64,000 bases of DNA from Candidatus Eiseniibacteriota bacterium (GCA_005893165.1 VBOR01000061.1:36555-100554), one strand, 5' to 3'. Numbered from the stretch's first letter, positions 1 to 14,858 are shown. Numbers and translations are program-made. The notes: a model not told the origin generated them from the sequence alone.

Positions 1-1
1 C

Positions 2-628
2 GAGCTCAAGGTGAAGGGGGAGAACGCGCGGCTCCTGGACCTGGTCGTCCGCGAATCGGAGCGCCTGGACAACTTCATCCGCGAGCTGCTCGATTACGCG
101 CGCGAGCGTCCGCTCAAGTGCGAGGACCTGGACCTGGAGTCGCTGCTCACGGACATCGTCGACGTCGCCCGCCGGCATCCCAGCGCGGAGGGGAAGACCC
201 TGCGCTTCGTGGGGCAGGGAGAGAGCGTGTACGTGCACGTCGACTCGGAGCAGATGCGCCAGGTGCTCCTGAACCTCGTGCTGAACGCGCTCGAGGCGGT
301 GGATCCGGAAGGAAAGGTGGACGTGAGGGTCGCCGCCCGGCGGAACCGGCCGGCGAGCCCGATGGGAGCGCCCGCGACGACGTGGGTGTGTGTCGAGGTG
401 CAGGACAACGGAATCGGAATCGCCGCGCCGGAAGTCGAGCTGATCTTCGAGCCTTTTTACTCCACGAAGCGGGGGGGCACCGGTCTCGGGCTCGCGATCG
501 CCAACCGAATCGTGGAACGCCATGGAGGCGCACTGGAGGTGGAGAGCCGTCTCGGAGCGGGCACCACGATGCGGGTATGGGTCCCGAGAAGCACGAGCAC
601 GGCACGAACGGTCGCCCACGCGGCGTAA
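2..628 (+). CDS. Sensor histidine kinase, C-terminal fragment (5'-truncated by window edge); PilS-like by context
   Basis: HATPase_c motifs (DNGIGI, GGTGLGLAIANRIVERHGG, TTMRVWVP) in the 11..628 ORF frame, which is open to position 2. It sits immediately upstream of an NtrC-family regulator and pilin genes. Confidence 0.8.
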   Translation, partial: ELKVKGENARLLDLVVRESERLDNFIRELLDYARERPLKCEDLDLESLLTDIVDVARRHPSAEGKTLRFVGQGESVYVHVDSEQMRQVLLNLVLNALEAVDPEGKVDVRVAARRNRPASPMGAPATTWVCVEVQDNGIGIAAPEVELIFEPFYSTKRGGTGLGLAIANRIVERHGGALEVESRLGAGTTMRVWVPRSTSTARTVAHAA

Positions 629-653
629 CCCTTTGTCGAGCGAGGTGGATCAG

Positions 654-12315: not shown

Positions 12316-13120
12316 GTTCTTCCAGAGCCGTCTCGGCATTCTTCTCATCGCTCTGGTCGGGCTCGCGATTGCGGCCGGAATTCTGCTGCTCCGGCAGAGG
12401 GGGGAGCCCAAAGCCCCGACGCTTCCGACTCCGGCGACTTCGCCGGCGGCGCAGTCGATGGCGCGTCCGGTTCCCAAGGCCGTGATGTACGGACCGCCCG
12501 CGCCGGCGTGGGCGCGCACGGACCTCAAGTACGGTCCTCCGTGCCCTCCGGAATTCCTGGCCAGCGCGCAGGCGGCCGGCGGCGCGACGTCCCCGTCGGC
12601 GCCGACGATCCTGGCGCCCGGCGAGACCGCCGCGCCGTCCTCCTCGGCCGCTCCGGCCACCGGAGCCGCGTCCATCCCGGGCTCGGCGGCCGCGGTTTCC
12701 GGCGCTCCGGGCGCATCGGTTCCGATTGGAATGCTCACCGGCGAGACGCCGAAGTCGGTCGACGCCAGCGTGCTCTTCGCGCGCGTGCGCTACGAGTACA
12801 TTGGCGGCGGACGGCGCGATCCGTTCCAGTCTCTGATCGATGGGAAGTTCCAGAACCAGACGGGAGACGGGTCCCTGGTGGACGTGGGGGACATCCATCT
12901 GGTCGGGATCATGTGGGGCTCCTCGGACAAATTCGCGCTGGTGGAAGACAGCCGGGGACATGGCTACGTGCTTCGGGTCGGAGACCCGGTCTTGAACGGG
13001 TACATCTCCGGAATCAGCAAGAGCGAGCTGCAGGTGGTGCAGAACGCGTTCGGAGAGTCCCAATCGATGTCGATCCGCCTGCAAACCAAAGAGGGTGACA
13101 AGAATGCGACTCGAAACTAG
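12278..13120 (+). CDS. pilP: Type IV pilus assembly lipoprotein PilP (with a Pro/Ala-rich linker)
   Basis: ATG 12278 follows the RBS gagggga. It has an N-terminal hydrophobic region, a long low-complexity P/A/S linker and a C-terminal conserved beta domain. It overlaps the pilO 3' end. Confidence 0.7.
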   Translation: MNLPSSLALSQSKFFQSRLGILLIALVGLAIAAGILLLRQRGEPKAPTLPTPATSPAAQSMARPVPKAVMYGPPAPAWARTDLKYGPPCPPEFLASAQAAGGATSPSAPTILAPGETAAPSSSAAPATGAASIPGSAAAVSGAPGASVPIGMLTGETPKSVDASVLFARVRYEYIGGGRRDPFQSLIDGKFQNQTGDGSLVDVGDIHLVGIMWGSSDKFALVEDSRGHGYVLRVGDPVLNGYISGISKSELQVVQNAFGESQSMSIRLQTKEGDKNATRN

Positions 13121-14759
13121 CTTCTCGCGCGCGTGCCGCTCCGGCGGACGCATCGCGGCGCTGACGACGGCGCTTCTCTGGATCGCGTCCACGGCGACCG
13201 CGGCAACGGTCAAGAGCGTCTCGATGAAGGACGCGGGTACCGCGACGCAGGTGGTCATCGAGGGAGACGCTCCGCTCAACTACCACGACTTCACGCTCGA
13301 GTCGCCGGACCGCATCGTCGTGGACTGCCCGGGAACGCAGCTCAGCTTCAGCGAGCGCGCCTGGTCGGGGCGCGAGGGCACGTCCATCAAGGCCGTGCGC
13401 GCGACCGAGACGGGCTGGGGCAAGGACGCCGGGACGCGGATCGTCGTGGATCTGACGCGGCCCTCTTCCTACGCCCTGAGCAGCGTCGGGAACAGCCTCG
13501 TCCTCGCGGTCGAGGCGCCCGTCCCGCAGAACTCCAAGGAGCAGGAGCCTCCCGAGTACGACCGCATGCAGCCCTCGGACAGCCGGCGGATGTCGCTCGA
13601 CGTCCAGGGCGCCGACATCCAGACGGTGCTGCGGAGCCTCGCGGAGTTCAGCGGCAAGAACATCGTGGCGAGCAAGGAGGTCAAGGGGGAAGTGACCCTG
13701 AGGCTCCGCAACGTGCCCTGGCGGCACGCGCTCGACATCGTCCTCAAGTCGCAGGGTCTCGGCATGATCGAGACCGGCCAGACCATCCTCATCTCGAACC
13801 TCGAGACCCTCCGCAAGGAGGAGATGGAGAAGCGCTCGGCCGAGCGCGCGCAGGAAGAGCTCCTGCCGCTCGAGACCCGCATCCTTCCGATCAATTACGC
13901 GGCCGCCAAGGAAATGTCGAGGTCGGTCGAGAAGACGATGACCAAGCGCGGACACATCGAGGTGGACGAGCGGTCCAACACGCTGATCGTGACCGACATC
14001 GCCGACAAGCTCGACCAGGTCGACGCCATGATCCGGAACCTCGACACGCGGACGCCGCAGGTGGAGATCGTCGCGCGCCTCGTGGACGTGGACGTCTCGG
14101 CGACGCGGGACCTCGGCATCAAGTGGGGCGTCCATAACCTGGATCTCTTCGACGCGGGCGTCACGGAGCACGTGGACGTGAACGCGAACGACGTGACCGG
14201 GCCCGCCGGGATCGTGACGGTCGGAACCATCAAGTCGTTCGGATCGATCGACGCGACGCTCCAGGCGCTCGAGACCGCGAACAAGGCGAACATCATCTCC
14301 AATCCGCGCATCACGACCGTGAACAACCGCGAAGCCTCGGTGGTGGTCGGGAAGCAGATTCCCCTCATCGTCCAGGACTTCGCCGGAAACGCGGTGACGC
14401 AGCTCACGACCATCGGGATCAAGCTGAACGTGACGCCCCACATCAACACGGGGAACCGGATCACGATGGACGTCCATCCGGAGGTCTCCGACCTCGCGTC
14501 GCAGGCCACCGTGCAGGGAGGGATCATCATCAACACCACGATGGCGGACACGCGCGTGATGGTGAACGACGGCGAGACCGCGGTGATCGGCGGCCTCATC
14601 CGGAGCAACGAGAGCACGCTGAAGCGCGGGATTCCGGTCCTCATGGACATCCCGCTCCTCGGAAACCTCTTCCGCTCGAGCAGCGCGACGAAGCAGAAGC
14701 GGGAGCTCCTGATCTTCGTCACGCCCAAGATCCTCGGAGAGACGGCCTCCCGGGAATAG
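13104..14759 (+). CDS. pilQ: Type IV pilus secretin PilQ (AMIN domain plus secretin)
   Basis: Signal peptide, N0/N1-type domains and the C-terminal secretin motif (NPRITTVNNREASVVVG...ELLIFVTPKIL). Confidence 0.9.
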   Translation: MRLETSFSRACRSGGRIAALTTALLWIASTATAATVKSVSMKDAGTATQVVIEGDAPLNYHDFTLESPDRIVVDCPGTQLSFSERAWSGREGTSIKAVRATETGWGKDAGTRIVVDLTRPSSYALSSVGNSLVLAVEAPVPQNSKEQEPPEYDRMQPSDSRRMSLDVQGADIQTVLRSLAEFSGKNIVASKEVKGEVTLRLRNVPWRHALDIVLKSQGLGMIETGQTILISNLETLRKEEMEKRSAERAQEELLPLETRILPINYAAAKEMSRSVEKTMTKRGHIEVDERSNTLIVTDIADKLDQVDAMIRNLDTRTPQVEIVARLVDVDVSATRDLGIKWGVHNLDLFDAGVTEHVDVNANDVTGPAGIVTVGTIKSFGSIDATLQALETANKANIISNPRITTVNNREASVVVGKQIPLIVQDFAGNAVTQLTTIGIKLNVTPHINTGNRITMDVHPEVSDLASQATVQGGIIINTTMADTRVMVNDGETAVIGGLIRSNESTLKRGIPVLMDIPLLGNLFRSSSATKQKRELLIFVTPKILGETASRE

Positions 14760-14858
14760 GGGCGGCGCGCCGCTTTCGCGCGCGGCGAACAACGGTTATA
14801 CTGCGGGGTCCTTCATGGAAGGGCCCCGTTTCTTTTTTGGTCGCCGAGGAGCGTTCGG

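Follow-up and report, generated by a model that had tools for sequence, protein, structure and literature searches.

We analysed a 64-kb stretch of DNA (VBOR01000061.1:36555-100554; G+C ~67%), termed the window throughout and meaning the stretch at its full length, from a genome of Candidatus Eisenbacteria, abundant uncultured soil bacteria for which, to our knowledge, nothing is known experimentally of surface behaviour. Positions 1-14760 hold a type IVa pilus cluster of Myxococcus-like layout, the main type IVa pilus locus of this bacterium. Two of its sigma-54 promoters, those of the pilin genes and of pilMNOPQ, are preceded by the same conserved palindrome, which is probably bound by PilR, the enhancer-binding protein encoded beside the pilins. 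Gene calls were made from an open reading frame (ORF) listing combined with Pfam and NCBIfam scans and synteny, all of which bear out the order proposed in a first-pass annotation of the window, from a partial pilS through pilR, two pilA genes, an ABC module and pilD to pilMNOPQ. In full the order is pilS-pilR-pilA-pilA-[ABC ATPase, permease, PilG-like]-pilD-two pilin-like genes-(minus-strand gene resembling glycosyltransferases of fold C, GT-C)-pilMNOPQ, as follows:

2-628, plus strand: pilS, C-terminal part (HisKA, HATPase_c; Pfam)
654-2033, plus strand: pilR, NtrC-type enhancer-binding response regulator (REC PF00072; PF00158, E 7.5e-67; HTH_8 PF02954)
2297-2701, plus strand: pilA1, major pilin candidate, 134 aa (N_methyl PF07963)
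2738-3145, plus strand: pilA2, tandem pilin paralogue, 135 aa (N_methyl PF07963)
3316/3354-4181, plus strand: pilH-like ABC ATPase, disrupted in this assembly (PF00005)
4178-4942, plus strand: pilI-like ABC-2 permease (PF12679)
4939-5601, plus strand: PilG-like accessory protein, 220 aa, N-terminal transmembrane segment, resembling tetratricopeptide repeat proteins (homology to an ORF of locus L073)
5601-6233, plus strand: pilD prepilin peptidase (Peptidase_A24, E 2.6e-20)
6239-6748, plus strand: GspH/FimT-like minor pilin (PF12019, N_methyl)
6745-7509, plus strand: second pilin-like protein, 254 aa (hydrophobic pilin-like N-terminus by eye; syntenic in relatives)
7520-9664, minus strand: 714-aa membrane protein, GT-C fold with a C-terminal domain like a carbohydrate-binding module (CBM) (AlphaFold2 model, Foldseek)
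10095-11126, plus strand: pilM (PF11104, E 3.6e-69)
11135-11683, plus strand: pilN (PF05137)
11707-12315, plus strand: pilO (PF04350)
12278-13120, plus strand: 280-aa protein in the PilP position (position only)
13104-14759, plus strand: pilQ secretin (AMIN, N0, Secretin; PF00263, PF11741, PF03958)

The exact PilM sequence is present on many soil metagenome contigs, and dozens of Candidatus Eisenbacteria metagenome-assembled genomes (MAGs; one genome per species) encode a PilM with 80-97% identity to it. Identity falls to 49-53% in loci labelled Gemmatimonadota or unclassified and to ~40% in Acidobacteriota and Myxococcales. An origin in the Fibrobacteres-Chlorobi-Bacteroidetes (FCB) group is supported by the two hallmarks named in the first-pass annotation, both of which we recovered: a DUF5683 domain (PF18935) at 30766-31431 (E 4e-15), and a type IX secretion system (T9SS) type A sorting domain, TIGR04183, at the C-terminus of an S8 protease (26.6 bits against a cut-off of 23). 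The protease (50789-56965) is a secreted 2058-aa subtilase, which also carries fn3, HYDIN/ASH-type Ig and BACON-like domains. The comparison drew on ~100 related loci. Synteny was mapped across 90 loci; 80 further loci were gathered with PilR as the query, and 68 non-redundant regions upstream of pilA promoters were taken.

Three -24/-12 elements of the sigma-54 type lie in the cluster, all on the coding strand and in intergenic DNA, together with two strong intrinsic terminators:

2209-2224, plus strand: promoter of pilA1-pilA2, TGGCATGTCCGTTGCT (TGGCAT-N5-TTGCT)
3161-3207, plus strand: terminator after pilA2, 15-pair stem and T-run, kept in relatives
3253-3268, plus strand: third element, before the ABC operon, TGGCACAGGACTTGCG (TGGCAC-N5-TTGCG, a looser pattern)
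10005-10020, plus strand: promoter of pilMNOPQ, TGGCATGGAACTTGCT (TGGCAT-N5-TTGCT)
14803-14839, plus strand: terminator after pilQ, 12-pair stem and T-run

The near-identical elements at 2209 and 10005 had been recognised in the first-pass annotation, and they stand: the strict degenerate pattern TGGCAY-N5-TTGCW has exactly two matches in 64 kb, where 0.03 are expected, and none of 100 shuffles reaches two. The accompanying count of two sigma-54 promoters was too low, as it overlooked the conserved element at 3253, which follows the pilA2 terminator by ~45 nt and precedes by 48 nt the start codon that the ABC ATPase has in intact relatives. Conservation is strong at all three, the pilM element being nearly invariant in every locus with a PilM at least 79% identical, the pilA element kept in ~70 related loci, down to 60% PilR identity, and the ABC-operon element in ~30. 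No sigma-70 promoters were found in 1-15500. Transcription starts are predicted at ~2235, ~3279 and ~10031, which would give three sigma-54-dependent units of predicted extent. The first promoter would drive pilA1-pilA2 as far as the terminator at 3161-3207, the second the pilH-, pilI- and pilG-like ABC module, pilD and the two pilin-like genes, and the third pilMNOPQ, ending at the terminator at 14803.

TGCA occurs 131 times in the window (2.05 per kb), and its two densest clusters in the 64 kb, four copies in 63 nt (2052, 2081, 2088, 2111) and three in 23 nt (9904, 9916, 9923), are exactly those that the first-pass annotation had picked out; each lies 80-160 nt ahead of one of the only two promoters to match the strict sigma-54 pattern. 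With uniform placement, the probability of a maximum of at least four copies in 70 nt is 0.04 and of at least three in 30 nt is 0.14. Alignment with relatives resolves the two upstream regions into the following sites, to which no strand is assigned and whose centres are counted from the inferred transcription start:

2051-2063, no strand: pilA site A, TTGCATTTTGACC, degenerate dyad conserved as YYGCAWTTTGACC in a 17-locus alignment, centre ~-178
2080-2092, no strand: pilA site B, ATGCAATATGCAG, TGCA-N3-TGCA palindrome with a core invariant in the 84-100% identity group, centre ~-149
2110-2122, no strand: pilA site C, GTGCATTCCGCGC, matrix score 11.6, third best in the window, centre ~-119
9896-9908, no strand: pilM site 1, GTGCGTGATGCAA, conserved dyad at -109/-110 from the promoter in 33 loci, centre ~-129
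9915-9927, no strand: pilM dyad ATGCAGCGTGCAT, lineage-specific, in the window and L011 only
9928-9938, no strand: pilM conserved box GGCAAAGCGCG, degenerate second site, with a dyad at -78 in relatives
9958-9984, no strand: inverted repeat GTAAG-N17-CTTAC, kept in 33 loci, centre ~-60

The idea of loose (A/G)TGCA(A/G/T) half-sites shared by the two promoters is right as to a shared upstream element and wrong as to its unit, which is the palindrome GTGCR-N3-YGCAC. Individually, only about half of the TGCAs are conserved. Of the seven, four belong to site B, site C or pilM site 1, and that at 2052 is part of site A, a degenerate yet conserved box; those at 9916 and 9923 are lineage-specific, not conserved past the closest relative.

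The palindrome emerges when every inverted dyad of 4-mers, with a spacer between 0 and 9, is counted without bias in the 68 pilA upstream regions. TGCA-N3-TGCA is observed 16 times against 0.38 expected, GTGC-N5-GCAC 12 against 0.32, TGCG-N3-CGCA 11 against 0.30 and CGTG-N7-CACG 9 against 0.24. These four are among the most enriched dyads, at 36-42 times background, and since they share one register they describe one palindrome of 13-15 bp, cGTGCR-N3-YGCACg. Upstream of pilM it stands at -109/-110 from the promoter, with 0-2 mismatches, in all 33 Eisenbacteria loci, its half-sites kept and its spacer variable, and many loci have a weaker copy at -78. Upstream of pilA, relatives carry one to three copies ~30 bp apart; in the window sites A, B and C are spaced 29-30 bp. 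Phylogenetic footprinting, a check that the first-pass annotation had proposed, thus supports a cis element common to pilA and pilM.

A matrix was then trained on the pilM sites alone and applied to the regions upstream of pilA in 64 loci from which no training site had come. Of these regions, 80% scored above the 95th percentile of dinucleotide shuffles (Mann-Whitney p = 4.5e-35), and scores on the pilA-ABC intergenic spacers, a real control, were at chance. A dyad with at most one mismatch, 40-200 nt upstream, precedes 39 of 45 pilM promoters and 38 of 67 pilA promoters, against a background of 0.18 per kb or ~0.03 per region. These counts over all loci include near-identical loci and orthologous sites, which are not statistically independent, so they overstate the number of independent observations; the argument for the palindrome accordingly rests on its conservation amid variable flanks and on the cross-prediction from pilM to pilA. 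Two further matrix hits, at 60520 and 60527 (scores 9.7 and 12.2; span 60520-60541), lie inside a nitronate monooxygenase gene and were treated as chance, and a weak -24/-12-like element near them, at 60161, is probably chance too.

It is scarcely credible on this evidence that intergenic base composition or chance produced the TGCA clusters and that they lack any sequence-specific function, and we regard this reading as already strongly disfavoured. TGCA is short and itself palindromic, exact TGCR-N3-YGCA is no commoner in the window (6 matches) than in shuffles (4.5 expected), and of the three TGCAs ahead of pilM only one is conserved. However, three of those six matches fall in the two upstream regions, which hold the densest TGCA clusters of the window; in 33 loci the position is fixed and the half-sites are conserved against variable spacer and flanks, and the enrichment stands against both dinucleotide shuffles and the real intergenic control.

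The inverted repeat at 9958-9984, between the pilM upstream sites and the promoter, was overlooked in the first-pass annotation. GTAAG-N17-CTTAC is unique in the window, where 0.01 are expected. DNA-bending proteins usually act between upstream sites and promoter. A site for integration host factor (IHF) was considered here and rejected: the window has a TCAA-N4-TTA core, whose TCAA is not conserved in relatives, so we give the element only as a conserved inverted repeat.

The 430-nt region that holds the pilM sites (9665-10094) is common to two divergent genes, and its conserved elements might mainly regulate the minus-strand GT-C gene (7520-9664) rather than pilM; the gene pair is, moreover, syntenic across Eisenbacteria. 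We think this improbable. It is to the -24/-12 element of the plus strand that the dyad keeps an exact spacing (-109/-110), and not to the start codon on the minus strand; no sigma-54 element was found on the minus strand of this intergenic region. Two loci with no match to the GT-C gene (L053 and L062) also keep the pilM promoter and a dyad-like site, with 1-2 mismatches, ~142 nt upstream.

The palindrome is probably the binding site of PilR, which would use it to activate pilA and pilMNOPQ together with sigma-54. In nearly all lineages the pilA sites directly follow the pilR gene. Its product has a helix-turn-helix (HTH) segment, QKKRASEILGIN(P/A)STLYRK (QKKRASEILGINxSTLYRK), identical across ~68 orthologues, and lineages with the same half-site show no variation in the HTH. 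Precedents exist in other phyla: regulation of pilA by PilR and sigma-54 is well established for Pseudomonas, Myxococcus and Geobacter (PMC6058289, PMC6211767, PMC2725144), and in Xanthomonas the expression of pilMNOPQ depends on RpoN2 and PilR (PMC7170775).

In our model the kinase PilS would phosphorylate PilR, whose dimers would bind cGTGCR-N3-YGCACg palindromes through the Fis-type HTH: three sites near -178, -149 and -119, ~30 bp apart, at pilA, and at pilM a fixed site near -129 with a weaker one ~30 bp downstream. The bound dimers would form an AAA+ oligomer that, by DNA looping, contacts and remodels the sigma-54 holoenzyme at -24/-12. At pilM, looping may be aided by a factor on the inverted repeat near -60. 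Pilin supply and the PilMNOPQ assembly platform would in this way be switched on together.

Several observations weigh against this model. PilR is proposed as the binder from comparative evidence, in an uncultured organism. Its sigma-54 contact loop reads GSFTGA (window 1240-1260, 'GHVKGSFTGA') and not the canonical GAFTGA, and there is no rpoN within the 64-kb window. The window's own pilA sites have 1-3 mismatches at outer consensus positions, and the most distant group (59-65% PilR identity) mostly has a single ATTGCA-type half-site and not the full dyad. The non-independence of orthologous sites tells against the model as well, as does the placing of the pilM sites in a divergent intergenic region, where they could also, or instead, serve the minus-strand gene. 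Finally, no dyad was found upstream of any of 19 ABC-operon promoters, nor any conserved box in relatives between the pilA2 terminator and the promoter at 3253, so the model leaves the activation of this promoter unexplained.

A different protein, either another enhancer-binding protein whose gene lies elsewhere in the genome or a global dimeric regulator or repressor, might bind the palindrome as a real regulatory site, PilR acting through different or weaker sites. We consider this unlikely. The tie between palindrome and PilR is comparative and not a physical link, and since the ABC-operon promoter lacks the dyad, at least one promoter of the cluster must be activated in some other way. PilR itself, or a co-regulator, could instead recognise one of the other conserved boxes: YYGCAWTTTGACC at 2051, GTAAG-N17-CTTAC at 9958, and an TGAAGWTTGCCCG box in the 66-69% identity group. 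Against it stand the position of pilR directly upstream of the pilA sites, the invariance of its HTH where the half-site is conserved, and the placing of the sites at -100 to -180 with a 30-bp tandem spacing, which is typical of an enhancer-binding protein. In a deeper lineage (L056), moreover, the only local pilSR pair lies beside pilM, yet pilA keeps its dyads.

If PilR is indeed the binder, a broader proposal can be entertained, tentatively and with more doubt than the binding itself. The whole Eisenbacteria pilus machine might form one sigma-54 regulon, in which a single PilR, recognising the lineage-specific GTGCR-N3-YGCAC, would govern the pilins, PilMNOPQ, the PilHIG ABC module together with PilD and, in many relatives, the minor pilins. 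The pilMNOPQ promoter, which follows a second pair (PilS2R2) in Myxococcus, might have come under the control of this PilR, and the ABC promoter might be activated from the PilR assembly at pilA ~1 kb upstream or by an activator that does not bind DNA.

Comparison with characterised systems indicates a cluster known in kind, a type IVa pilus locus controlled by PilSR and sigma-54; what the analysis adds is a well-supported operator prediction. The enhancer-binding protein encoded beside pilA, the -24/-12 pilA promoter and several activator sites ~100-180 bp upstream (here candidate sites) recall the PilS-PilR systems of P. aeruginosa, Geobacter and Dichelobacter. In P. aeruginosa, PilR sites are of the form TGT-N11-AGA with GTCT elements (PMC6058289). 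The putative operator here differs, being GTGCR-N3-YGCAC, and the same element also precedes pilMNOPQ. The enteric NtrC enhancer at glnAp2, with tandem TGCACC-N5-GGTGCA dyads centred near -140 and -108, resembles our sites in having tandem TGCA palindromes, set some three turns of the helix apart and 100-150 bp ahead of a sigma-54 promoter, and in its reader, a protein of REC-AAA+-Fis-type HTH architecture (here, we infer, PilR). It differs in its 17-bp dyad, against 13 bp with a 3-bp spacer here, and in its regulon. In NCBIfam, PilR itself scores below the cut-off of NtrC and of every other named enhancer-binding protein. In the RpoN2-PilRX regulon of Xanthomonas oryzae, expression of pilA, pilMNOPQ and the minor-pilin operon needs sigma-54 and PilR, and direct RpoN2 binding was shown only at the pilR, pilA and pilC promoters; unlike there, pilM here has a canonical, highly conserved -24/-12 element and a candidate PilR-type dyad (PMC7170775).

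Gene order invites comparison with M. xanthus, in which the order, described by Wu & Kaiser and by Wall & Kaiser, is reportedly pilB-T-C-S-R-A-G-H-I-D-S2-R2-M-N-O-P-Q. Both are single superclusters with a sigma-54 promoter at pilA, an ABC ATPase, a permease and a PilG-like protein between pilA and pilD, and pilMNOPQ downstream. PilB, PilT and PilC lie outside the window, which begins inside pilS; in a relative with 95% PilR identity (L092), a T2SSE ATPase (pilT-like) and a T2SSF protein (pilC) are found directly upstream of pilS-pilR-pilA. The order pilR-pilA-ABC-permease-accessory-pilD-...-pilMNOPQ is kept throughout Eisenbacteria over the 90 loci, and in deeper lineages pilM directly follows pilD. 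Earlier literature, as quoted in PMC6060248, had long regarded pilGHI as peculiar to Myxococcus. Here, the ABC ATPase and permease match pilH and pilI of an Archangiaceae MAG (L073) by tblastn, and the accessory protein matches, end to end over 178 aa (BLASTP, E 1e-4), the L073 ORF between pilA and pilH, which from its position would be PilG; tblastn of this ORF finds the accessory gene in many relatives (E 1.7e-17 to 1e-7). Homologues of the complete pilGHI set are thus present, arranged H-I-G and not G-H-I, so that the Myxococcus-type layout of the first-pass annotation stands for the pilGHI homologues, pilD and the downstream pilMNOPQ, though not for the order within the module. The comparison of synteny that it had suggested thus finds the layout conserved across Eisenbacteria and the pilGHI homologues in Archangiaceae, and the module syntenic in a phylum distant from Myxococcus.

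Other features separate the two clusters. Before pilM there is no pilS2/pilR2 but a divergent GT-C-like gene, which is inserted here together with two pilin-like genes; the two pilins are short (134-135 aa), and the host phylum, Eisenbacteria, belongs to the FCB group. The Myxococcus PilA model NF041775 matches in the N-terminal helix alone and scores 60.8 bits, where the cut-off is 400, and the one pilA upstream region examined for Myxococcales, that of Archangiaceae L073, shows no evident copy of the dyad. The comparison reveals no new kind of system; what it provides is a testable cis-regulatory map of Eisenbacteria pilus genes, with three promoters, operator coordinates and a consensus, which could guide predictions of the PilR regulon in complete genomes of Eisenbacteria and the design of heterologous reporters.

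The minus-strand gene that separates the pilin-like genes from pilM, omitted from the first-pass annotation, encodes a 714-aa protein with no sequence match in Pfam (E up to 10), NCBIfam or the PDB, and only fold comparison gave it an identity. Its AlphaFold2 model (mean confidence score, pLDDT, 86) is matched by Foldseek to STT3, EmbB, AglB, ArnT and PglB (E 2e-6 to 5e-5) and also to AftA, and the C-terminal domain is CBM35/CBM6-like. The first loop has an invariant PLDD. The ~330 homologues are all unnamed, and the gene is syntenic with pilM across Eisenbacteria; a 796-aa protein after pilI in L073 was considered as a homologue and rejected. GT-C glycosyltransferases have been linked to pilin modification, for example TfpW of P. 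aeruginosa. With such enzymes the 714-aa protein would share the predicted GT-C fold, an invariant acidic pair in the first loop and a place inside a pilus cluster, and it differs from them in its CBM-like C-terminal domain and in having no detectable sequence similarity in Pfam, NCBIfam or the PDB. It is plausible that it glycosylates the pilins or another envelope substrate. The model suggests what would be the first structure-based assignment for this unannotated family inside a pilus cluster.

As for the remaining genes, full-length orthologues of PilS, among them the 575-aa protein of a near-identical contig (L001), have 6TM_PilS, PAS, HisKA and HATPase_c domains, and the window holds the C-terminus only. 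The two pilA genes share ~92% nucleotide identity and have a class III prepilin signal, KGFTLIELM, with a hydrophobic N-terminal helix; TIGR02532 matches as well. Among close relatives (L015, L024, L031, L044, compared with window 2297-3145) the tandem pilA copies number one to four. For the 220-aa accessory protein, searches of Pfam (E up to 10), NCBIfam and PDB sequences gave nothing useful, nor did those of Pfam (E up to 10) and NCBIfam for the 254-aa pilin-like protein and the 280-aa protein in the PilP position. No Rfam families were found in 1-16000. The statement that minor pilins are integrated in the cluster is only partly shown, because just two pilin-like genes are present. In ten relatives (L012, L013, L025, L026, L028, L036, L037, L039, L042, L052) the GspH-like gene heads a separate block with its own TGGCAY-N5-YTTGC -24/-12 element, in the first 100 nt of the locus, and the pilin-like genes are separated from the GT-C gene by ~4 kb of additional genes. 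Dyads upstream of gspH were counted in two of two cases, and the count was dropped as the loci are cut too near the promoter to show the upstream region.

Relative to two contigs that are 99.2-99.9% identical (L001 and L003), the window lacks three stretches of ~135-160 nt, with junctions at 3385/3386, 5659/5660 and ~20910, the first two also seen against a further contig (L004). The first two had escaped the first-pass annotation. All three may be assembly errors or strain alleles. The 160-nt deletion after 3385 takes out the Walker A motif of the ABC ATPase and shifts the frame, by comparison with the intact 341-aa gene of L001, and the ABC_tran match in the window begins only at profile position 25. 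The second, of ~140 nt and in frame, removes 47 aa of the N-terminal Cys-rich domain of PilD, including its CxxC...CxxC region, a truncation confined to this assembly; L004 has yet another variant at this site. The third, of ~135 nt near 20910, lies near the DprA gene.

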